A stretch of DNA of 29,986 nt from a virus. Taxonomy: Duplodnaviria > Heunggongvirae > Uroviricota > Caudoviricetes. The stretch is taken from IMG/VR virus record IMGVR_UViG_640753023_000011. One strand, 5' to 3'. The notes below the pieces were generated by a model. That model made no database searches and had not been told where the DNA came from. It saw only the letters and a list, made by a program, of their open reading frames with translations. Both the position numbers and the translations under genes were made by a program. Shown here piece after piece: positions 2,148-29,668 of this stretch (position 1 is the stretch's first letter; the number at the start of each line of letters is the position of its first letter).

Positions 2148-2835
2148 TCCACGGCAATTTTTTCCAGTTACTGGATGGATCTTTCAACCATGCAGTGACT
2201 TCCTTTAAATCACGGTTCGCAGTGGCGACGGGGGTATCGTATATCATTAACCATTTTTGTCGGGCGCGAACATAAGCACTGGCATAATCTTCCCATGAAG
2301 CGAAACAATCTTGTGCTCTTTGAGCATTCAGTAATAACACTATCCAGGCCTGGTTTTCATCGCACCAGCCTAAACCGGCGATGCAACGAGTTAAAAAAGC
2401 AGTGCGCATACAGTCAAACGCCAGCCCATCCAGAACCTGGCCTTGTGCTGCCAGTTGTTCGTAAAAATCATGTGGAGAATTACCAAGCCCTGTAGCCCAG
2501 CGCTGTAATATAACGCCAATTTGTTGACGGAAATCTTCGTTGCTTTGGTAAGTTTCTGTTCCTAGCTCTTGTTTAACCTGTAGTGCAAGTTGTTGACGCT
2601 TATCATCAGTCAACTTTAAATCTAACGTGAAGCCATTTACTGACAGTCCATTACGACGAGCAACTATATCACCAATTGCTAATGCCCACTTACGTCTCTT
2701 TGTTGCTCGTCTTTTGTCCTTGATTAGATCCTTTTCTTTTTCTTTAGCAATAAAAGCATCGATTTGTGGTTTGTTTTTTTTGTATCTATAGATAAAAATA
2801 AATATTGCGACCAGGAGAACAATGATAAGACTCAT
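2119..2835 (-). CDS. hypothetical membrane-anchored protein (single N-terminal TM helix then a basic/charged linker), 238 aa
   Basis: ORF track; N-terminus MSLIIVLLVAIFIFIYRY is hydrophobic, followed by a Lys/Arg-rich stretch; its start codon overlaps the stop of the upstream 404-aa gene by 1 nt. Confidence 0.55.
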   Translation of the reverse strand: MSLIIVLLVAIFIFIYRYKKNKPQIDAFIAKEKEKDLIKDKRRATKRRKWALAIGDIVARRNGLSVNGFTLDLKLTDDKRQQLALQVKQELGTETYQSNEDFRQQIGVILQRWATGLGNSPHDFYEQLAAQGQVLDGLAFDCMRTAFLTRCIAGLGWCDENQAWIVLLLNAQRAQDCFASWEDYASAYVRARQKWLMIYDTPVATANRDLKEVTAWLKDPSSNWKKLPWNEFKIFEPN

Positions 2836-4049
2836 TATTTTTCAACCTCTGACAGGGGTAAGTAATGAGATGTCTGTAATGTCAAACTCTCTATCTCAAA
2901 GGAAATGTTGCTGATATTTTGACCTGCAAATTGCGGATGCCACTCAGCGCCAGGGAATAACATTTCCGCAGAAGTAGCAACTATAGGGTCAATAGCATTA
3001 AGATAATGTAACTTATCAGGTGCGCTGTGTAACAGTAACCACTGCAACTCCACTGAAGGATTTGTAAAATGTTCTAATAAATGAAAGTTATTATGTAGTA
3101 CGCTTAGTAAAAAACTGGTTTCGTATACTTCCGTTACATATTTCCACCCCTGATATTCAGGTGTATTTTCATAAACAATACCCATACCTTCACAATCACT
3201 ATGTCGAACTGCTTGTGGTGATAATAGTTGCAAAAGAGACAAAACATCGTCCGCATATTTTTTAACTGGATGACGATTTTGCTTACCTTTTATTTGATCA
3301 ATTTCAAGTGAATCACCAACAACATTGAGAGCAATAGTAACATGAGGAATATTATTATTATCACGCAAACTGAATAACCGTAATTTATGTTGCTCAATTT
3401 GATTTGCATAATACTCACCATAACCACCGGTAAGATTTTTTCGATCATCAAACTGGCCTACGCAATGTTGCATATGCCATGATTCATAAGCCATTTCACG
3501 ACGAAGGTTCGAATGACTGGCATCAAACTCAACAATTTTTCCGTCTGGCACATCAAGTATTGACTTTACAGTATTTTGTTCACTCGGCTGCCACCCTTTC
3601 TCGCGTCGTTGAAGCATCTTTTCATGCTCTTCTTCACGCATTCTGAACGCAACGTAGCAGGTTATGCGCTGTAGTTTTGATTCCAGACGGGTACCACATT
3701 TCCTGGAAAGAAATTCCACCAACTCCCGTTCTTTGGTTAATATTTGTTGATGATCGGTTTCGATATAATAAAGTGTCGCAGTTGATACTGAGGCAGTATT
3801 AAACTTCGATACCAGCCATTCCGGGATTACATCATCATTTTTATTAAACAGTGAATATTCTGCAAGCGAGTTAATTTGTTGCACCATTGGAAAGTCACTA
3901 ATTAGCCATCGATAAAAATGGTTGAGTAACCATTTTTGGATGGTCTCATTATCCTGGCGAAACAGACTTCTTTGCAAAATTGCTGTTTTTACTTCCGGGG
4001 CATTAATTACATCCCTTGCATTATAATTCTGGTGAATATTTCCAGTCAT
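2835..4049 (-). CDS. hypothetical protein, 404 aa, first gene of the AT-rich three-gene operon
   Basis: ORF track; AT-rich; preceded by a ~450-bp AT-rich non-coding region (4050-4500) likely holding its promoter. No motif recognised with confidence. Confidence 0.55.
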   Translation of the reverse strand: MTGNIHQNYNARDVINAPEVKTAILQRSLFRQDNETIQKWLLNHFYRWLISDFPMVQQINSLAEYSLFNKNDDVIPEWLVSKFNTASVSTATLYYIETDHQQILTKERELVEFLSRKCGTRLESKLQRITCYVAFRMREEEHEKMLQRREKGWQPSEQNTVKSILDVPDGKIVEFDASHSNLRREMAYESWHMQHCVGQFDDRKNLTGGYGEYYANQIEQHKLRLFSLRDNNNIPHVTIALNVVGDSLEIDQIKGKQNRHPVKKYADDVLSLLQLLSPQAVRHSDCEGMGIVYENTPEYQGWKYVTEVYETSFLLSVLHNNFHLLEHFTNPSVELQWLLLHSAPDKLHYLNAIDPIVATSAEMLFPGAEWHPQFAGQNISNISFEIESLTLQTSHYLPLSEVEK

Positions 4050-4536
4050 AACATCCGCCCGTGTTTATTATATCACTCAAAGCAATAATTGTTGACTATA
4101 GATTTTTTATCTAAATCAGCATGGTTGCAGGTACATACTCAAGTAAGCCACTCAAGAAAATAACGTAAACTCAATAGTGGCAGCGTCACAAACTTTGGAA
4201 ATTATGTCTTATATTTGCAGTTTATTTTAGTGAATAATTGAGATAAATGACATTATTTTACATCCTCAATAATTCAGGCTGTAAGAGGACGGCAAATACA
4301 TTCATAATTATCAGGGGATGAACATTCAGGAAAGTAGTCAGTATCGTCAACTTTTTCTTTTATCACTACATGAAGATTTCGTGTAGATACTCCCATCTCT
4401 GCCACTTCTCCCCTCACATTTACACTGGAGCTAAACCCGCCGATTGCGCTACAATGCCCGCCCTTAAAGTGGGGGCACTCCCCTAACCGCTTCATCAGGT
4501 GAAGCGGCTCTGACCTGTCATCAGAACGAGAGAATT

Positions 4537-5898
4537 ATGTTTAAACCGGAACTCCTTTCCCCGGCGGGAACGCTGAAAAATATGCGTTACGCTTTCGCTT
4601 ATGGCGCAGATGCTGTTTATGCGGGCCAGCCGCGTTACTCCCTGCGTGTACGCAACAACGAATTCAACCACGAAAATCTTCAGCTCGGCATCAATGAAGC
4701 CCACGCGCTGGGGAAAAAGTTTTATGTCGTGGTCAACATTGCACCGCACAACGCCAAGCTGAAAACCTTTATCCGTGACCTGAAACCGGTGGTGGAAATG
4801 GGGCCGGATGCGCTGATTATGTCCGATCCAGGGCTGATTATGCTGGTGCGTGAACACTTCCCGGAAATGCCAATCCACCTCTCGGTACAGGCTAACGCCG
4901 TAAACTGGGCGACGGTGAAATTCTGGCAGCAAATGGGTCTGACCCGCGTGATCCTCTCTCGCGAACTGTCACTGGAAGAGATTGAAGAGATCCGCAATCA
5001 GGTGCCGGATATGGAGATCGAAATCTTCGTTCACGGCGCGCTGTGCATGGCCTACTCCGGTCGCTGCCTGCTCTCTGGCTATATCAACAAGCGCGACCCG
5101 AACCAGGGCACCTGCACCAACGCCTGCCGCTGGGAGTACAATGTCCAGGAAGGGAAAGAAGATGACGTCGGCAACATCGTACACAAGTACGAGCCGATTC
5201 CGGTGCAAAATGTTGAGCCGACGCTGGGTATCGGCGCGCCAACCGACAAAGTGTTTATGATCGAAGAAGCCCAGCGTCCGGGCGAGTATATGACCGCGTT
5301 TGAAGATGAGCACGGCACTTACATCATGAACTCGAAAGATCTGCGCGCCATCGCCCATGTTGAACGCCTGACCAAAATGGGCGTGCATTCGCTGAAAATC
5401 GAAGGCCGTACCAAATCTTTCTACTATTGCGCACGCACCGCGCAGGTTTACCGTAAAGCTATCGATGACGCCGCTGCGGGCAAACCGTTCGATACCAGCC
5501 TGCTGGAAACGCTGGAAGGTCTGGCGCATCGTGGCTATACCGAAGGTTTCCTGCGTCGTCATACCCACGACGATTATCAGAACTACGAATACGGTTATTC
5601 GGTTTCTGACCGCCAGCAGTTTGTTGGTGAGTTTACCGGTGAGCGCAAGGGGGAGCTCGCGGCGGTAGCGGTGAAAAATAAATTCTCCGTTGGCGACAGC
5701 CTTGAGCTGATGACGCCGCAAGGCAACATTAACTTTACCCTTGAGCATATGGAAAACGCCAAAGGTGAAGCGATGCCGGTCGCACCAGGCGATGGTTATA
5801 CTGTGTGGCTCCCGGTGCCGCAGGATCTTGAGCTAAATTACGCGCTGCTGATGCGTAATTTCTCCGGGGAAACCACGCGTAACCCCCACGGTAAGTGA
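4537..5898 (+). CDS. yegQ: peptidase U32-family protein YegQ (TrhP)
   Basis: 453-aa ORF whose sequence I recognise as E. coli YegQ; typical core-genome GC content; synteny with cyaR immediately downstream. Confidence 0.9.
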   Translation: MFKPELLSPAGTLKNMRYAFAYGADAVYAGQPRYSLRVRNNEFNHENLQLGINEAHALGKKFYVVVNIAPHNAKLKTFIRDLKPVVEMGPDALIMSDPGLIMLVREHFPEMPIHLSVQANAVNWATVKFWQQMGLTRVILSRELSLEEIEEIRNQVPDMEIEIFVHGALCMAYSGRCLLSGYINKRDPNQGTCTNACRWEYNVQEGKEDDVGNIVHKYEPIPVQNVEPTLGIGAPTDKVFMIEEAQRPGEYMTAFEDEHGTYIMNSKDLRAIAHVERLTKMGVHSLKIEGRTKSFYYCARTAQVYRKAIDDAAAGKPFDTSLLETLEGLAHRGYTEGFLRRHTHDDYQNYEYGYSVSDRQQFVGEFTGERKGELAAVAVKNKFSVGDSLELMTPQGNINFTLEHMENAKGEAMPVAPGDGYTVWLPVPQDLELNYALLMRNFSGETTRNPHGK

Positions 5899-5982
5899 TT
5901 AATTTCGATTATTTTTCCCGGATGGAAAATTCTTAGAAACCGATCACATACAGCTGCATTTATTAAGGTTATCATCCGTTTC

Positions 5983-6069
5983 GCTGAAAAACATAACCCA
6001 TAAAATGCTAGCTGTACCAGGAACCACCTCCTTAGCCTGTGTAATCTCCCTTACGCAGGCTTATTTTTT
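5983..6069 (+). ncRNA. cyaR: CyaR (RyeE) small RNA
   Basis: Sequence gctgaaaaacataacccataaaatgctagctgtaccaggaaccacctcc... matches CyaR as I recall it, ending in a terminator hairpin (gcctgtgtaa/ttacgcaggc) plus a T-run; lies downstream of yegQ as in E. coli K-12. Confidence 0.85.
6043..6069. other. prophage attachment core, ogr-proximal copy (attR), overlapping the cyaR terminator
   Basis: 27-bp sequence aatctcccttacgcaggcttatttttt is repeated directly at 29314-29340 with 2 mismatches; the repeat matches the P2 att core as I recall it. Confidence 0.75.
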
Positions 6070-6132
6070 ACGCGTAACACAATGAAATAAAAGGATTTAT
6101 TTCTGGTCACGTCCACACATTGACCACATCGA

Positions 6133-6158
6133 CAAAAAAGCCCCTCGACTGAGGGGCT
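6133..6158 (-). terminator. rho-independent terminator downstream of ogr
   Basis: GC-rich inverted repeat gcccctc-gact-gaggggc followed on the minus strand by a T-run (plus-strand A6 at 6134-6139). Confidence 0.55.
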
Positions 6159-11582: not shown

Positions 11583-12443
11583 TTAATTGCTGTTAACCGA
11601 GGTGACCAGATTTGCCAGGTATTTATCGGTAATACGCTGGCGCAGGGTCAGGTTTTCGAGAGGAGGCACCGGTGTATAGTCGTAGTCGATATACAGTTTT
11701 CCGGCCTTGAGGGTTTCCGCATCGTTGGATTCTTCGCTGAACCAGCATGAGCCATCCACGATATAGCCGTTTGTTTTCAGCTCACGGAATTTGGCATTGA
11801 TGCCGTCAACGATATCGCGAATCAGCGTTGCGGTGATGGGCTTGTCCACCGCCCACATGTGCGCCTCAGCCATCGTGTCGGCCAGCACCTGCGCGGTGCG
11901 GGTGTAGTTTTCAAAGAGAAACAGCGGGTCATCAGAGCAGGTACGGTTACCCCAAAAGCGGAAACCGTCGCGGCGAATCAGCGTAGTGACGCCTGACTCG
12001 TTAAGCAGGTCAGCATCGGTGCCGGACTCCTGCAAATCCCAGAATACAGAGGCGCTGATGCCGGTAACACCGTTTACCCCGACGTTGGACAGCGTTTTAT
12101 GCCAGCCCTGCTCCTGGTCGATTTTAGCGCGCAGACCCAGCGCACGGGCGGTGGCATACGCGGTGGCGGTGGTACTGGTGACCGTATCCCATGCGAGGAA
12201 ATCCGGCCAGATGACCATCAGCTCACGCTGGCTGAAATTCTGGCGGTAGGCTTTCACCTCGGAAATGGTTTTACAGCCCCATGCGCTGATATACCCGAAA
12301 GCGCGCAGCTTCTGACAGACGGATGCCAGTGCAACAGCCACCTCTTTGGTATCCAGTCCCGGCACACCGAGAATACGCGGTTTAACACCGGTTACCGACT
12401 CCGCCGCCAGCAGGTGCGTATTACCGTGAAGGAGATCGGTGAG
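11583..12443 (-). pseudogene. FI: tail sheath protein (gpFI-like), 5'-truncated at the IS boundary
   Basis: 288-aa ORF where ~390-400 aa is expected for a myovirus sheath; the ORF's first codons lie at or within the IS21-family left end. Confidence 0.75.
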
Positions 12444-12499
12444 TAACATCGATGGAGATCGGTTCGTGTCACTTTCACAGAACCGTTTTTAAATTACCT

Positions 12500-13249
12500 T
12501 CACTGATCTCCTTCGGTCAACGGAGATTGTATTTTCCGCATTGATTCTCCTTTAAGTTCGATCTTGATACTGCCATGAACCAGTCGATCTAGGATGGCAT
12601 CCGCATGTGTGGAGTCTCCGATCATTTTGTACCAGTTTTCCACCGGCAACTGGCTCACTACGATGATTGAGCCTCGTTGGTACATCAGATCCACTATTTC
12701 CAGCAGGTCGCTACGCTGTTCTGATGAGAGAGGTTCCAGCCCCCAGTCATCCAGAAGCAGCAGATCGCTATTATTCAGCCTGGTCAAAAGTTTGCTGTAT
12801 CTTCCATCAGCATGCCCCTGATAGCACTGTTCCATCAGCGCTTTAAGGCGATAATAGTAGACCTTGTATCCCTGTCGGCAGGCATTATGACCAAGTGCAC
12901 ATGCCAGGAACGTTTTACCGCTGCCGGTGGCCCCGGTCAGTAAAATATTTTGTTTCAGGGTTAACCAGTTTCCCTGACTGAGTGAACGGATGAGGGCCCT
13001 GTCCAGCCCTCTATTGTTACGATAATCCAGCTTTGATAACTCAGCATTAAGTCTGAACCGTGCATGTTTGATCAGACGCTCTGCCTTCCTGTTTTCACGG
13101 CAGGTTAGTTCTTCTGCTGTCAGTAATGACAGGCGTTCTTCGAAGCCCAGCTCCTGGTATGTGCCCGGCTGAGCAAGTTGCTTTTTAAGCGCATCACGGA
13201 AGCCGGTGAGTTTAAGTGCGGTCAGTTGTTCGTAAAGATGATTCATCAT
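12500..13249 (-). CDS. istB: IS21-family IstB transposition helper ATPase
   Basis: 249 aa with Walker A (GATGSGKT) and Walker B (LLLLDDWG) motifs; located downstream of istA. Confidence 0.85.
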   Translation of the reverse strand: MMNHLYEQLTALKLTGFRDALKKQLAQPGTYQELGFEERLSLLTAEELTCRENRKAERLIKHARFRLNAELSKLDYRNNRGLDRALIRSLSQGNWLTLKQNILLTGATGSGKTFLACALGHNACRQGYKVYYYRLKALMEQCYQGHADGRYSKLLTRLNNSDLLLLDDWGLEPLSSEQRSDLLEIVDLMYQRGSIIVVSQLPVENWYKMIGDSTHADAILDRLVHGSIKIELKGESMRKIQSPLTEGDQ

Positions 13250-13260
13250 TGGATCCCGTA

Positions 13261-14803
13261 TCAGTGGTAATACTCACTGCCGCGTACGTTTTCGTGTTCC
13301 ATCGTGGATAACAGATCTGGTTTTGGATCCTGAACAGGTTGTTTATCCAGACCTTTTTCCAGGATCGATTTAATACCTGACAGACGCCATACCTTTGTTT
13401 TCAGAGCTCTTGCACATGCTGCATTAAGTCTGGCTTTACTGTATTTTTTATGAAGGTTCAGGAGTCCAAGGCAGAAGCGATAGCTTTGTTCCGGATGTGG
13501 ACGAGAGTTCAGTATATGAAGCACATAACTATGAGTTTCACTGCCTATGTGCCCCGCCCATTCCAGAAGACGCTCTGGCGTCCAGGTGGCATGCTGTCGA
13601 TGAGCTTCAGGCATGTGCTCGTTGCGGGTACTGTAGCCATAAGTACGCTTGCGCGGGTGCACAGCAACCTCCTGCCCCTGATTGAAGAGTCTTACCAGTT
13701 CTCCGGAGATCCATGCTTCCAGTTGCTGGCCTAACAGCGAACATGGAACCGAGTAGTAATGTTTGTCGATTTCCACGTGGTAATCGGCATGAACTCTGAC
13801 TTTCTTCACCAGGGTGTAACTGTAACTGGCTTCAGGAAGAGGCTTCAGTGCGGGTTTATCAAGCTGGATGAAGAGTTCTGCACGTGAATAACCCAACTTC
13901 TGCATTATTTTGTTATTCAGTCTTTCCAGCAACTCCCGAATGCGCTGATTAAGCGATGCAAGGCTGTAGAAGATCTCATGCCTGATTCGGGCCATGATCC
14001 AGCGTTCAACAACCTGAACGCCAACTTCAGCTTTGGCTTTATCTTTTCGGTTTACGTGGCCGCGCAGGCAAAACTGCGACATTATAATGCTCAAGCATCT
14101 GCTGGTAGGTAGGGTTAACGTCAGGATCATACTTACATGCCCTGGATGTGGCGCTTTTCAGATTGTCCGGAACAACAAGTTCAGGAACGCCACCCAACCA
14201 CTGGAAGCAGCGAACATGACTCATCACCCAGTCTTCAAGCTGCTGAGACCAGGTGGCCTCTGCCCATGTGTAACTTGATGCCCCGAGAACAGCTACGATG
14301 ACCTGAGCAGTTCTTATTTCTCCGGTCTCAGGGTCGGTAACGCCAACGGTAGGTCCACAGTAATCAACGAAAAGTTTTTCGCCAGCTTTATGTACCTGAC
14401 GCATTGATGGTGAAGTGGTTTTGAGCCATTCACGGTACATCCGGCAGTAATGGTTATAGCTGTAAAAACCGCCTGGATTACGCTCACAGTATTCTTCCCA
14501 GAGTAGCTGCAGCGTCACGCATTTATTACGCAGTTCCCGGTGTACTGTAGCCCAGTCAGGCAGAGAGTGCTTCTTCATCTTAACCTGGGTCTGAAGGAAC
14601 GCATGTTTTAGTTTTGTATCATCCCATCCTGTAGGTAAGGGCCACTGCTTTATGCCAAGTTGAGCCGCCCGATTAGCATATCTGGATACAACGGAAGGGG
14701 AGATTGCAAGACTACGACCAATTTGTCGATGGCTGAGTCCAACACCGTATTTAAGCCTAAGAATTTCTTTAAGTTTTCTCATAGAAATTGGAACTGTTGG
14801 CAT
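13261..14803 (-). pseudogene. istA: IS21-family IstA transposase, split by a frameshift into 254-aa and 289-aa ORFs
   Basis: N-terminal ORF (14039..14803) has an HTH and ends ...RPRKPKR*; the C-terminal ORF (13261..14130) continues in another frame with ...[11 protein letters not shown]...; the shift maps to a T4 (mRNA A4) run at 14044-14047. Confidence 0.7.
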
Positions 14804-14917
14804 AGGTATCCTTTACCGGAATGGCAAAAGATACAGATCAACACACCTGTGAAGTTCCAATAACATTGATGGAGATCACTGAATAACAAAATGAGTCAAA
14901 AGTGATCTCCATCGATG

Positions 14918-15829
14918 TTATTCAGCGATCTTAAAACTACCCATATCAGATATCCGATTAGCCCGCGTACCTACATGTATTGCAGCGCCTTCTCCCAAAC
15001 CAAGGTATGCGAGAAGACCGGCAACATCCTTTCCACTCAAATGAGTCAGCGTCTCATCCAGTGGCTGCTTACCTGACAGCGCATTGTTAATGGTGGTGCT
15101 GAATTTCGGGTCATTGTTAATGGCTGCGGCAATTTCTTTCAGTGTGTCCAGCGTGGCTGGCGCACCGTTAATCAGAGCGGTAATAGCGGCCTGAACAAAC
15201 GCAGTGGTCGCAATCCGCGTGGTGTTATTTCCTGCGGCAGGCGTCGGCGCTTTTGGTTCTCCGGTAAATGTCGGATTATGTTTCTGCGCATACTGGGTAT
15301 GAGGATCCTGTGCGGCAATGTGGTTTCTCATCTGGTCATCCACATACAGCCTTAATTCCAGGACTTCATCATCCACGTATTTACGGGTCGCCAGTACCAC
15401 CGACGGGTCGATTTTCAGCGTGATAGCTTCGGTATTCGTGACAACCAGAATCATGCGGATAGTCTGGGTACGACCGCTGCCTTCCTGCAACTGCGGTTTG
15501 TACGTTTCCGGGCAGTTCGCCACCGCAATGAGTACGCCTTCATCATCATAAAGCCCAATCTCACGGATCCAGAATCCGCCCTCGTTCTCAGGGATGATTT
15601 GCTCCGCAATAATCTGGCTCTGGTTGTTCGGGTCAACACTCAGAAGATTCAGCGGCGCGATGCGTTTCTGGTTAATCAGTTTTGTCTGTGCCGGGTCTGG
15701 TGTCGGCAAGACACCATTCGCATCACCAACGGCCATTTGCGTCAGATTCAGCTTACTGCCGAGCATCGTCGCGTTAGCCAGCCGTGCTGCGCCCTGATTA
15801 GTCAGAATGGCGTAGTATTTCACTGTCAT
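14918..15829 (-). pseudogene. H: tail fibre protein (gpH-like), 3'-truncated at the IS boundary
   Basis: 303-aa ORF with an N-terminus resembling P2 H (MAVGD..G.LP.P...QT.L; GGFW.RE.GLYDD.G.LIAVAN; YKP.L.EGSGR); its stop is supplied by the IS right end; full-length H-type fibres are much longer. Confidence 0.75.
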
Positions 15830-16437
15830 GCGTTTACTCTCAGGTTATCAATTAAATGAATGGCCGAGGCCGGGAAATAATCCCCTCCGACAATAATGGC
15901 CTCTGGGGTGTAGGGATAAACCGTCAGGGCGTCACCGTGATAGCATCCCGCACCGGCAAAAATGTTGCCGGTTGTACTTAAACTGATAGCCAGTCCCGTC
16001 AGATGGCGACTTGCCGGTTTGGCATCAGCAACGAGGCGCTCCAGCTCCTGATACATTTCCTCGGTAATACCCTGCTCAAGCACGCCAACAACGATACGGA
16101 ACGTCCCCGGCTCCTCGTTGAGTTGCCACCACTCCCTCACCTCAATCAGATAGCCGAGCGGCTCCACCACACGGCGAATCGCACCAATAGTGCCCTTATG
16201 GCAGTGAATGAAATACGCATCGCGGATAACAGCGCGTTTGGTCGCTTCCGGCCATTTATCATCCCACCTGTCGACCGAAAATGACCACGCCAGCCACGGC
16301 AGCAGATTTGCCGGGCAGGTGTCCGGGTTCCACAGCTCACGAATACTGACCGGTGTTTTTTCAATTTCCGCACAGGCTTTTGCGGCGGCGACTTCAAGCG
16401 GCGATGAGCCAGTTGGCAGCAGTCGCGAATCACTCAT
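15826..16437 (-). CDS. I: baseplate assembly protein (gpI-like)
   Basis: 203 aa; position between J and H as in P2; start overlaps the J' stop. Confidence 0.7.
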   Translation of the reverse strand: MSDSRLLPTGSSPLEVAAAKACAEIEKTPVSIRELWNPDTCPANLLPWLAWSFSVDRWDDKWPEATKRAVIRDAYFIHCHKGTIGAIRRVVEPLGYLIEVREWWQLNEEPGTFRIVVGVLEQGITEEMYQELERLVADAKPASRHLTGLAISLSTTGNIFAGAGCYHGDALTVYPYTPEAIIVGGDYFPASAIHLIDNLRVNA

Positions 16438-16918
16438 CCGAGCCTCCGGTCACGACGCTGTATTCAGTACAGAAAGACGCCTGCGTACTGTTGAGCACAA
16501 TGTCAGCCAGCGGTGCAGTCAGTTCGACACGCTGCACGCCTTCCACATGCAAAGCGGCATAAATGGCAGACAGACGGATGTCGCGCCCAAGCCGGTGCTG
16601 TGCCGTGATGTACGCTTCCAGTTTTTTCACGGCAGCAGCGCGGATGGGTTCGCTTTCGGGACCAGGGTAAAGGTAAAGCGTGGCGTTTATCTGGTATTCA
16701 ACAATGGCGGCAGACTGCACGGTCACGCGGTCGGCCACCGGTCTGACGTCCTCGCCATTCAGGGCGTTACGCACCACGGCCAGCAGGTCTTCGGATGCGA
16801 CACCGTTATTTTCACGTGACAGCACGGAGATGGTGACGCAGGCCGGAGACGGACTGGTGACAGAGATATCCGCGACACGCCCGTCGGCACTGCGGCCATG
16901 ATACTGATAGGCTCCCAC
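16430..16918 (-). pseudogene. J: baseplate protein (gpJ-like), 5'-truncated; N-terminus of the called ORF derives from the repeat junction
   Basis: 162-aa ORF where ~300 aa is expected for P2 J; upstream sequence is the 38-bp tandem repeat array, not J coding sequence. Confidence 0.6.
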
Positions 16919-17097
16919 CGACCCGGCGCAGGGTCAGGTTTTCGAGAGGCTCCCACCGACCTGGCGCAGGGTCAGGTTTTCGAGAGGCTCCCACCGACCT
17001 GGCGCAGGGTCAGGTTTTCGAGAGGCTCCCACCGACCTGGCGCAAGGTCAGGTTTTCGAGAGGCTCCCAACGACCCGGCGCAGGGTCAGGTTTTCGC
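16910..17097. repeat. five tandem copies of a 38-bp unit (ggctcccaccgacc[c/t]ggcgca[g/a]ggtcaggttttcgaga)
   Basis: Direct reading: copies start at 16910, 16948, 16986, 17024 and 17062 with a strict 38-bp period and 1-2 substitutions per copy; the last copy decays after 17096. Confidence 0.9.
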
Positions 17098-17599
17098 TCA
17101 CGGGCGTTGCCACTGAAATCAGGTTTTCAGGGCTTAATTTGAAGCGGTTCAGGGGGTTGTGTTTTGCCGTGCGGCAGAATTCCAGGTATTCCGTGCCGAG
17201 GCTTGCCGGGTCATCGGTGACGGCCAGACCCACCAGATAACATTTGCCGGTGTTGGCAAAGTTCGGCTGAATTTCCATTGAGGTGTAGACCTTCTGCGCG
17301 GCCTTGTTCATCGCGATAAGGTCATCGGTCGGGGTGATTTTCGCAAACAGCGCCCATTTGCCTTTCAGCGCCGAATCATCGTCAATCTTTTCGGCCTTAA
17401 GTTCGGCCACATCGCCATAACGTTTAAAAATACCATCAGGCAGGATGCCGCGCAGATGTTCCAGGTTAATGCGGCAACCGTAGACACGCGGGTCAAAGGT
17501 TTCAGCCATTTCCTGAATATCCTGCGCACTGATGACACGCCCGTCACAGGTGTCACCCTCAACGCCGATACGAAAGAATTTTGAGACTTTTTTTGCCAT
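17048..17599 (-). pseudogene. O: capsid scaffolding protein (gpO-like), 3'-truncated and fused to repeat-derived codons
   Basis: Begins MAKKVSKFFRIGVEGDTCDGRV..., which I recognise as the P2 gpO N-terminus; ~183 aa retained where ~284 aa is expected; the C-terminal codons and stop lie inside the 38-bp repeat array. Confidence 0.7.
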
Positions 17600-17772
17600 T
17601 GTCAGGAGTCCTGAATAGTGATTAGAGGAGTCACATGTCGGCATCAGTTTCCCGACGATGCGCATCCTCCGCCATCAGTCCCGGATGGCTTATCACTGAC
17701 ACAACAGCACCTTAGCGAATCGCAGGGCGCGACTCAGTAGCCTTGCCGTGTATTCATCACGGCGAGGTATTC

Positions 17773-19545
17773 ATGACCATCACCACAGACACCACTCTTT
17801 TACACGACCCGCTTCGTCAGGCGGCGCTGCTGTACTGGCAGGGATTTTCCGTGCCGCAGATTGCCGCCATGTTGCAGATGAAACGCCCGACAGTGCAGAG
17901 CTGGAAACAGCGCGACGGCTGGGACAACGTTGCCCCCATCAGCCGTGTCGAAATGAGCCTGGAAGCGCGGCTGACCCAGCTCATCATCAAACCGCAGAAA
18001 ACCGGCGGTGACTTCAAGGAAATTGACCTGCTGGGACGCCAGATTGAACGACTGGCACGGGTAAATCGTTACAGCCAGACCGGCAACGAGGCAGACCTTA
18101 ATCCGAACGTCGCTAACCGCAACAAAGGCGGGCGGCGCAAACCGAAAAAAAATTTTTTCAGTGACGAGGCCATCGAAAAGCTGGAGCAGATTTTCTTTGA
18201 GCAGTCTTTCGACTATCAGTTGCACTGGTATCGCGCCGGGCTTGAGCACCGCATCCGCGATATCCTGAAATCCCGCCAGATTGGCGCGACGTTTTATTTT
18301 TCCCGCGAGGCGCTGCTGCGCGCCCTGAAAACCGGCCATAACCAGATTTTTCTGTCGGCCAGTAAAACGCAGGCGTATGTGTTCCGCGAATACATCATCG
18401 CCTTTGCCCGGCTGGTTGACGTTGACCTGACCGGTGACCCGATTGTCCTGGGCAATAACGGCGCAAAACTGATTTTTCTCGGCACCAACTCCAACACCGC
18501 ACAGAGCCATAACGGCGACCTGTACGTCGACGAGATTTTCTGGATCCCGAATTTTCAGGTACTGCGTAAGGTGGCATCAGGTATGGCCTCACAGAGTCAC
18601 CTGCGCTCGACCTATTTCTCCACCCCGTCCACACTGGCGCACGACGCCTACCCGTTCTGGTCGGGTGAACTGTTCAACCGGGGACGCGCCAGCGCCGCCG
18701 AACGCGTGGAAATCGACGTCAGTCATAACGCCCTTGCCGGAGGTCTTCTCTGTGCGGACGGCCAGTGGCGGCAGATTGTCACCATTGAGGACGCCCTGAA
18801 AGGTGGCTGCACACTGTTCGACATTGAGCAGCTCAAACGTGAAAACAGCGCCGACGATTTTAAAAACCTGTTCATGTGTGAATTTGTTGACGACAAGGCG
18901 TCGGTGTTCCCGTTCGAGGAGCTGCAACGCTGCATGGTCGACACGCTGGAAGAATGGGAAGACTATGCGCCGTTTGCCGCCAATCCGTTCGGCTCACGCC
19001 CGGTATGGATTGGTTACGATCCGTCACACCGTGGCGACAGCGCCGGATGCGTGGTACTGGCACCGCCGGTGGTGGCCGGTGGCAAATTCAGGATCCTTGA
19101 GCGTCACCAGTGGAAAGGCATGGACTTTGCCACTCAGGCTGAATCCATCCGCAAACTCACCGAAAAATACAACGTCGAATACATCGGTATTGATGCCACC
19201 GGCCTCGGTGTCGGCGTGTTCCAGCTCGTGCGCTCGTTCTATCCCGCCGCGCGCGACATCCGCTACACGCCGGAAATGAAAACCGCAATGGTGCTCAAGG
19301 CAAAAGACGTTATTCGCCGTGGCTGTCTGGAATATGACGTCAGCGCCACCGACATCACCAGCTCGTTTATGGCTATCCGCAAGACCATGACCAGCAGCGG
19401 ACGCAGCGCCACCTATGAGGCCAGCCGCAGCGAGGAAGCCAGCCACGCCGACCTCGCCTGGGCGACCATGCATGCCCTGTTAAATGAGCCACTCACCGCG
19501 GGTATCAGCACCCCGCTGACATCCACCATTCTGGAGTTTTACTGA
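17773..19545 (+). CDS. P: terminase large subunit (gpP-like)
   Basis: ~590 aa; start taken at MTITTDTT..., preceded by GAGG 7 nt upstream (the track's upstream ATG at 17743 lacks an SD); transcribed away from O toward cos as in P2. Confidence 0.85.
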   Translation: MTITTDTTLLHDPLRQAALLYWQGFSVPQIAAMLQMKRPTVQSWKQRDGWDNVAPISRVEMSLEARLTQLIIKPQKTGGDFKEIDLLGRQIERLARVNRYSQTGNEADLNPNVANRNKGGRRKPKKNFFSDEAIEKLEQIFFEQSFDYQLHWYRAGLEHRIRDILKSRQIGATFYFSREALLRALKTGHNQIFLSASKTQAYVFREYIIAFARLVDVDLTGDPIVLGNNGAKLIFLGTNSNTAQSHNGDLYVDEIFWIPNFQVLRKVASGMASQSHLRSTYFSTPSTLAHDAYPFWSGELFNRGRASAAERVEIDVSHNALAGGLLCADGQWRQIVTIEDALKGGCTLFDIEQLKRENSADDFKNLFMCEFVDDKASVFPFEELQRCMVDTLEEWEDYAPFAANPFGSRPVWIGYDPSHRGDSAGCVVLAPPVVAGGKFRILERHQWKGMDFATQAESIRKLTEKYNVEYIGIDATGLGVGVFQLVRSFYPAARDIRYTPEMKTAMVLKAKDVIRRGCLEYDVSATDITSSFMAIRKTMTSSGRSATYEASRSEEASHADLAWATMHALLNEPLTAGISTPLTSTILEFY

Positions 19546-29313: not shown

Positions 29314-29340
29314 AATCTCCCTTACACGGGCTTATTTTTT
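29314..29340. other. prophage attachment core, int-proximal copy (attL)
   Basis: aatctcccttacacgggcttatttttt; direct repeat of 6043-6069 (25/27 identical). Confidence 0.75.
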
Positions 29341-29668
29341 ATGCATAAGCCCTATCCCTGGTCACCGTCTTCCATTGACCACATCGATAGAATCCTCCTT
29401 CATAGCACGATGCTTTTCACTTATCGACATCGTGCTCGCACAGGTTCCGGTTACGCACAGCCAGAACGCGCATGTTTGACGCTTACCAAAAAATGAACCT
29501 AAAGCATTGGAACATTTTTGACATCATTTTCTGATGGCTGCATAAAATAAAAATTCTGCTTTAGTTTCATCTATCTGTTTGTCATTATTACTCACATTCA
29601 ATAATGGTGTTGAAGAATATCCCATCACAGATAAAATAAATATGTGCATGGTAGTCTTGAATCTATTC

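Follow-up and report, generated by a model that had tools for sequence, protein, structure and literature searches.

A 38-nt tandem array at the O'-J' deletion junction of a degraded P2-like prophage in E. coli APEC O1: a probable scar of microhomology-mediated template switching

Reported joints of prophage decay are usually simple, and templated-insertion alternative end-joining systems use Pol theta; to our knowledge, E. coli is without Pol theta, and we know of no such fillers from its known end-joining route, the RecBCD/LigA-dependent A-EJ. MMBIR is described as giving complex junctions with 2-5 bp of microhomology, through low-processivity synthesis that changes template several times and then gives way to processive replication (Hastings, Ira and Lupski 2009, PMC2621351), and the MMBIR/FoSTeS model derives in part from E. 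coli amplification work (PMC3161906). SD-MMEJ is described as consecutive rounds of annealing and synthesis, on templates no further than about 30 nt from the break (Khodaverdian et al. 2017, PMC5728401), and Pol theta scars are another case of templated insertions in alternative end-joining (PMC5068794).

The locus described here is a tandem array that lies between the truncated genes O' and J' of a P2-like prophage and whose units combine sequence from J and from the 3' end of the sheath gene FI. It resembles MMBIR/FoSTeS in being a deletion joint with short segments from nearby cis loci and several switches, with 1-6 nt of microhomology per switch and small errors by the joints (a -1 deletion and two substitutions), but the same two templates alternate here (J-FI-J-FI...), giving a regular minisatellite instead of an irregular patchwork, and it would be a natural bacterial prophage scar and not a selected amplification or a human CNV. 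With alternative end-joining, SD-MMEJ or 'trans SD-MMEJ', it shares a filler apparently copied from a nearby template after microhomology annealing, in repeated rounds; one template of the array, however, is 5.3 kb away, versus about 30 nt for SD-MMEJ (PMC5728401). As in VNTR or minisatellite slippage, the units are head-to-tail and near-identical, the inner ones being most alike, and 20-nt direct repeats flank the unit once the first chimera exists, but slippage alone cannot make the FI-derived half, two kinds of J-to-FI joint and a distinct last joint. The likeness to decaying E. coli prophages lies in the 8-kb loss of head, lysis and tail genes, the IS21-family insertion and deletion in the tail-fibre region and the defence cargo that was kept, whereas the array joint would preserve a multi-step record of which a sister strain appears to have the simplified state. 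The array probably belongs to a known kind, that of microhomology-mediated template-switch junctions and slippage-expanded repeats, and would be an unusually clean natural bacterial example of it.

The degraded prophage and its deletions

The window, by which we mean the whole stretch of 29,986 nucleotides that was analysed, is the E. coli APEC O1 locus (CP000468.1), identical over 20.5 kb. Its degraded prophage (Table 1) aligns collinearly with both P2 and the prophage of NMEC O18, and the P2 gene order, the near-identity and the Pfam families identify it as P2-like, with DNA identity to P2 of 97-99% in O, P, Q, FI-ogr and the early region. Comparison of the O 3' and J 5' breakpoints with intact relatives, which an earlier note on this DNA had proposed, showed that J is kept from P2 base 11702 and O to about 3671, giving a loss of about 8.03 kb (P2 3672-11701) and not the ~9 kb that the note had estimated. 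What is gone is the 3' third of O, the genes N, M, L and X, the lysis genes, the genes R, S, V and W, and J in its 5' part. In APEC E16002 (O1:K1:H7), this site is occupied on its yegR side by an intact P2-like prophage.

Several other features of the prophage were recorded. The IS21-family element lies between the N-terminally truncated FI' and the C-terminally truncated tail-fibre gene H', which points to a second deletion that took away the 5' end of FI together with the Z/fun hotspot, G and the greater part of H; NMEC O18 still has these genes intact. The ShosTA anti-phage cargo was assigned by PADLOC (ShosA, E = 2e-231; ShosT, E = 4e-296) and has a Pfam DprA-like DNA_processg_A match, and the same hotspot holds a SIR2 + ATPase pair in NMEC O18 and an AAA ATPase in APEC E16002. 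The window has a gpI allele (203 aa) of extremely wide occurrence, indexed in 23,277 blocks of the assembly collection and usually found upstream of invertible tail-fibre cassettes with a resolvase/invertase. In one relative, CM142773.1, an intact IS21-family element directly follows gene I, at a position that differs from that in the window. When the exact gpI allele (15826-16437 region) was used to look for the left array end in other assemblies, only intact P2-like prophages were returned, as the allele is very common.

Table 1. Features of the prophage, the array and its joints (window coordinates)
Feature	Coordinates	Strand	Description
Degraded P2-like (Peduovirus-type) prophage, ~23.3 kb	6043-29392	- (late genes)	between yegQ and yegR
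att-like direct repeats bounding the prophage	6043-6137 and 29314-29392		repeat search
FI' sheath CDS, without N-terminus	11583-12449	-	Pfam Phage_sheath_1/1C
Donor 27-mer	11637-11663	+	inside 3' end of FI; - strand codes PLENLTLRQ
IS21-family element	12433-14931		terminal inverted repeats 12433-12460 and 14904-14931; nested repeats 14859-14922
IstB	12500-13249
IstA, frameshifted and split	13261-14130 / 14039-14803
H', truncated tail-fibre gene	14918-15829
J' remnant, C-terminal part of baseplate protein J	16430-16928	-	Baseplate_J profile positions 136-254 of 255; Pfam-scanned ORF 16430-16918 (-)
Unit 1	16909-16946	+	direct reading
Unit 2	16947-16984	+	direct reading
Unit 3	16985-17022	+	direct reading
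Unit 4	17023-17060	+	direct reading
Unit 5, partial	17061-17096	+	direct reading
178 nt absent from the O18 junction (...GACCCGGCG followed by TTGCCACTG...)	16929-17106	+	alignment to O18
Outermost retained O sequence GCTCACGGGCG	17096-17106	+	natural O allele GCTCAACGGGCG minus one A
O', truncated capsid scaffold/protease gpO, 183 aa, WP_001085960.1	17048-17599	-	Phage_GPO, N-terminal 162 of 268 profile positions
ShosTA anti-phage cargo	20906-23231		between portal Q and replication module
J-to-FI joint string			GACC[CT]GGCGCAGGGTC
FI-to-J joint string			TTTTCGAGAGGCTCCCA
FI-to-O joint string			TTTTCGCTCACGGGCGTTGCC
Clean joint string, without array			GACCCGGCGTTGCCACTG
Array-specific k-mers			TTTTCGAGAGGCTCCCA and TTTTCGCTCACGGGCG

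Composition of the array and its joints

The five 38-bp tandem repeats that the earlier note had seen at the O'-J' junction are real, although their start moves by one base, from 16910 to 16909. Tandem Repeats Finder (TRF) gave one strong array in the window, at 16909-17096, with a period of 38, 4.9 copies, 96% matches, 0 indels and a score of 348, and a second repeat search of the window returned the same 38-nt register. The units abut directly, with no spacers. Each 38-nt unit consists of a J-derived part, AGGCTCCCACCGACC[C/T]GGCG (20 nt), and an FI-derived part, CAGGGTCAGGTTTTCGAG (18 nt), the latter occurring in FI only; the J part repeats the native J' end without a change, and the FI part agrees in full with the FI genes of this prophage, O18 and P2. 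At unit position 16, units 1 and 5 have C, as in J (16924 and 17076), and units 2-4 have T, as in FI (16962, 17000 and 17038). Two private substitutions, G>A at 17045 and C>A at 17070, complete the variation, with units 2 and 3 identical and unit 4 one base different. None of the fetched FI or J loci is a natural allele with these private SNPs (CAAGG, CCAACG), which may be ordinary later mutations instead of products of error-prone synthesis.

The FI sequence at the donor site reads ...ACGCTGGCGCAGGGTCAGGTTTTCGAGAGGAGGCACC, and its 27-mer CTGGCGCAGGGTCAGGTTTTCGAGAGG recurs in every unit of the array. The identity to 11637-11663 reported in the earlier note was found in the units but is perfect only in units 2 and 3 (27/27), while units 1 and 4 match at 26/27 and unit 5 at 21/27. 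Its 25-mer core has five matches in the window versus 0.00 expected from 100 dinucleotide shuffles, and a search of the unit in P2-like phages and in this genome, also suggested in that note, found no array elsewhere. As the donor sequence is also present in the FI genes of P2 and of the O18 prophage, FI is the source and not the recipient. The FI identity reaches into the J part of the unit, by GGCG on the left and AGG on the right, and only 2 of the 114 possible single substitutions in the unit lengthen the FI match, so that the T at unit position 16 is most likely templated. The donor and the J end are 5.3 kb apart in the window and 6.6 kb apart in the O18 prophage. A 10-mer in O', TCAGGTTTTC (17119-17128, + strand), 13 nt beyond the junction, is identical to the core of the FI donor (11648-11657). 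With GGCG, this makes two patches common to the FI 3' end and the junction region, which may have favoured FI as a template.

On the J side, native sequence stops at 16928 with ...GATAGGCTCCCACCGACCCGGCG, where intact J alleles have GGCG and then ACGCTTAAGCC; intact J reads ...GATAGGCTCCCAC(C/T)GACCCGGCG up to the breakpoint and ACGCTTAAG beyond it. On the O side, intact O reads ...CCAGCTCAAC(A/G)GGCG up to the breakpoint and TTGCCACTG after it. Among 120 IMG/VR P2-like O loci, 38 read CCAGCTCAACGGGCG followed by TTGCC, i.e. GCTCAACGGGCG before TTGCCACTG, and 78 read ...CAACAGGCG, i.e. GCTCAACAGGCG before TTGCCACTG. The 11 nt before O' in the window are GCTCA-CGGGCG, one base short of GCTCAACGGGCG; the exact string GCTCACGGGCG was found in no intact O allele in viral_contigs or genome_contigs, and the natural ...CAACGGGCG allele of O accounts for it. 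The computed chance of an O match this good at 17096-17106 is about 9e-4, and no other source with a match above 9 nt was found for the 10 nt 17097-17106 in the window, O18 or P2.

O' retains the N-terminal 60% of gpO and then reads through the junction and the array for its last 16 residues (SENLTLRRVVGSLSKT), giving a C-terminal tail of ...ATPVSENLTLRRVVGSLSKT. The frame ends after the 16 array-encoded codons and J' is not fused to it; the period is no multiple of 3 and the O' stop codon (TCA on the + strand, 17048-17050) lies inside the array, in unit 4, both as first described. A protein search with the O' C-terminus and its array-encoded tail retrieved 2 truncated O fragments only, neither with the tail, and the 205-aa ORF version of O' had no exact protein record. 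Members of the 90% cluster of O' were considered as alternative junctions and rejected, as they are contig-end fragments of O.

All J-, FI- and O-derived joints sit on microhomology and all pieces are in direct orientation to their sources, which fits the published MMBIR description. Segments from more than two loci (J', the FI 3' end and O') alternate in 16909-17106, the complexity known from MMBIR/FoSTeS, and microhomology agrees with the ~2-5 bp per joint of that model, though it is only 1 nt (G) at the FI-to-O joint. The J-to-FI joint has GGCG (4 nt), or C plus GGCG, and the FI-to-J joint has AGG (3 nt), within a 5/6 match in GA[G/T]AGG (GAGAGG in FI, GATAGG in J). Inner units exit FI after GAG(AGG), whereas the last FI segment exits after TTTTC(G), 2 bases earlier, so that TTTTCG is followed by CTCA in the last unit and TTTTCGAG by AGG in the inner ones. 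With two FI entry points and two exit points, a single insertion followed by duplication cannot yield the pattern, and the chimeric units, the two FI exits and the O remnant bear out the earlier view that a simple deletion does not explain the array. The array is GC-rich, partly self-complementary and regularly spaced. Its J-to-FI joint makes a small hairpin, GACCC-GGCGCA-GGGTC, and the whole array (16895-17110) as ssDNA folds with -49.3 kcal/mol (z = -3.6 versus shuffles). Quasi-palindrome correction was rejected as the source of the C-to-T change, as T weakens the GACCC/GGGTC stem by direct reading, and no Chi sites were found in the window.

Origin of the array and its relation to NMEC O18

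Judged by its sequence, the array is most probably a non-functional repair or replication scar at the ~8-kb deletion in a decaying P2-like prophage. For the kind of event, repeated microhomology-mediated template switching between J' and FI together with slippage, our confidence is high, the mechanism being read from the joints of a single end product; the earlier suggestion of replication slippage at a recombination junction is essentially upheld, every joint being on microhomology. Our confidence in one event over a stepwise path, and in the polarity relative to O18, is lower. In the proposed mechanism, a 3' end would go through repeated microhomology-primed template switching in the style of MMBIR/FoSTeS or of synthesis-dependent microhomology joining. 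Synthesis would run to ...GACCCGGCG in J and re-prime on (C)TGGCG at the FI 3' end, on the same strand and 5.3 kb off, where 18-23 nt would be copied to GAGAGG before re-priming on GATAGG, at a point 20 nt upstream from where J ends, and a new run to GGCG. The J/FI cycle would take place at least 3 times (C-type, T-type, C-type), and the 3' end would finally exit FI at TTTTC(G) and land in O at GCTCAACGGGCG, with the loss of one A. The identical inner T-type units (2-4) would then probably have been multiplied by slipped-strand mispairing or unequal exchange, with the ssDNA structure of the array (z = -3.6) as an aid to slippage. No intermediates with 1-4 copies were found. More tentatively, the whole may come from one iterative 5.3-kb template-switching episode, with at least 3 shuttles before the 8-kb gap was bridged, that made a minisatellite de novo; the O18 junction would then be a secondary simplification.

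NMEC O18 (NZ_CP007275.1) is the only place among 5,426 complete E. coli genomes where O' is joined to J' elsewhere. Its joint is clean, on GGCG, with ...AGGCTCCCACCGACCCGGCG directly followed by TTGCCACTGAAATCAGG... and no tandem repeat. Window and O18 have 0 mismatches over 16647-16928 and 17107-17227 and 1 mismatch in the chromosomal flank at 2713-6000, while divergence between the prophages is about 2.5% along their length and about 17% in gene I (16001-16430). The mismatch-free patch at the joint and the near-identical flanks indicate that the 8-kb deletion is most likely shared by APEC O1 and O18 by descent, in an otherwise mosaic prophage, and the lack of mismatches over 16647-17227 amid divergent prophage sequence suggests patchwise recombination with other P2-like phages that left the deletion unrepaired. 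The window joint keeps 7 O-specific bases just outside the O18 breakpoint, and it could thus not have come from the O18 joint, barring coincidence or a second O copy. The O18 joint is what is expected of a 178-nt deletion between CCGGCG (16923-16928) and CGGGCG (17101-17106), and the clean junction of O18 is probably a later deletion of this kind between the flanking C(C/G)GGCG repeats.

Among the alternatives, an assembly or cloning artefact in the APEC O1 reference, which the earlier note had listed, is very improbable. Tandem repeats are error-prone in assemblies, and the full array is present in one finished genome only, so that the copy number of 5 is that of the APEC O1 assembly alone (0 units in O18, and two short-read contigs that end within the array). 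However, WP_001085960.1 is encoded on CP000468.1 and on two Logan short-read contigs (SRR7524169 and SRR7524152), both of which run from O' into the array and break inside it, at window 17015 and 17040, where the k-mers become repeated. Both contain the O-proximal 1.5-2 units (from late in unit 3 or unit 4, across unit 5 and into O'), with the bases of the window at 17038 (T), 17045 (A) and 17070 (A) and identical FI-to-J and FI-to-O joints. Since the SRR7524169 contig differs from the window by 5 SNPs, all in gene P, it comes from another isolate and not from the same DNA preparation, and since the two independent short-read assemblies share the array end and its SNPs, the array is not an artefact of one assembly; moreover, FI/J chimeric k-mers cannot be invented by an assembler. 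Equally remote is the idea, in part also raised before, that a short mobile or recombinogenic element or a functional array (iterons, protein-binding sites, a small RNA or a CRISPR-like array) sits at the junction. The regular spacing, the GC-richness and the partial self-complementarity would suit it, but no further copies were found in the collections searched: the FI-to-J chimeric 31-mer has 0 exact matches in genome_contigs, viral_contigs and metagenome_contigs, the FI-to-O 23-mer has 0 in viral_contigs and metagenome_contigs, blastn against 5,426 complete E. coli genomes and 50,697 phage records matched nothing but the J part, and the J'-array-O' stretch is in no phage record. Neither the O18 sister prophage, which shares the deletion, nor any intact relative examined has the array, and these relatives included about 120 intact O loci and the fetched J alleles; local coding sequence explains both halves of the unit. 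A mobile or dispersed repeat (REP, MITE, IS) is accordingly poorly supported, with no copies at unrelated loci or in other genomes searched. So is a CRISPR or iteron array: the array has no spacers, no promoter or terminator signal (the 2 weak consensus matches found in 16500-17800 are in the part of O' that the array does not reach) and no Rfam match, and the P2 ori is in gene A, far from the array (P2 annotation). A diversity-generating retroelement is poorly supported too, as the shared tract is 27 nt versus roughly 100 nt and the changes (C/T, G>A, C>A) are not adenine-specific; a Pfam scan found no reverse transcriptase among 10 neighbouring ORFs. A 72-aa + strand ORF that spans the array had no candidates in the protein search. 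Apart from giving the truncated O' ORF 16 codons and its stop, the array probably has no role, as far as its sequence indicates, and it points to no new biological system.

Two further alternatives accept the same sources and concern the path. A stepwise origin would start with a ~5-6 kb tandem duplication from the FI 3' end to J', which gives the J-to-FI joint at GGCG, followed by an internal deletion between GAGAGG and GATAGG in the second copy, which leaves a 38-nt duplication, amplification by RecA-independent slippage or unequal exchange, and short-patch conversion from FI (25-27 nt of identity) that brings in the T. Both joints are exactly what a duplication joint and a deletion joint should look like if they connect one pair of loci in direct orientation, the identity of units 2 and 3 and the single base by which unit 4 departs are as recent slippage predicts, and the ssDNA array folds better than shuffles (z = -3.6), which would favour slippage; yet this path needs more independent events, does not itself explain the different FI exit of the last unit, leaves the J-type C in both terminal units without explanation and implies a large duplication that was seen in no genome among the complete E. 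coli genomes searched, so that we regard it as rather unlikely. The same grade fits the opposite polarity, in which the O18 GGCG joint is the original and the 178 nt are a subsequent insertion of the APEC O1 lineage. GGCG is present in both J and O at the O18 joint, as in a classic one-step microhomology deletion, and a simple event with local elaboration afterwards is intuitively parsimonious. Against this, the insertion must end in GCTCA-CGGGCG, the very O sequence directly outside the O18 breakpoint, by chance (about 9e-4) or by the copying of a second O, and the clean look of the O18 joint carries no weight, as any secondary J'/O' deletion looks clean. The polarity is read from the 11-nt O remnant, for which a co-resident intact P2-like O gene could in principle be a template, and the order of complex first and clean later is modestly favoured over the reverse on these bases.

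What the joint records

A source can be given for every base of the joint, which makes the array a small but unusually legible case of prophage decay. With template switching between J' and FI as the favoured reading, a wild lineage of E. coli would here show microhomology-primed copying from a cis template that lies far off. Each of the three chimeric joints is a unique string, found in none of the collections searched, and they are possible lineage markers for the APEC O1-type remnant. The comparison with O18 suggests that complex joints can later collapse to clean-looking microhomology deletions, and O18 is thus a caveat for inferring a mechanism from junction sequence. If the single-episode reading is true, complex origins would lie behind some of the microhomology deletions in bacterial genomes that look simple.
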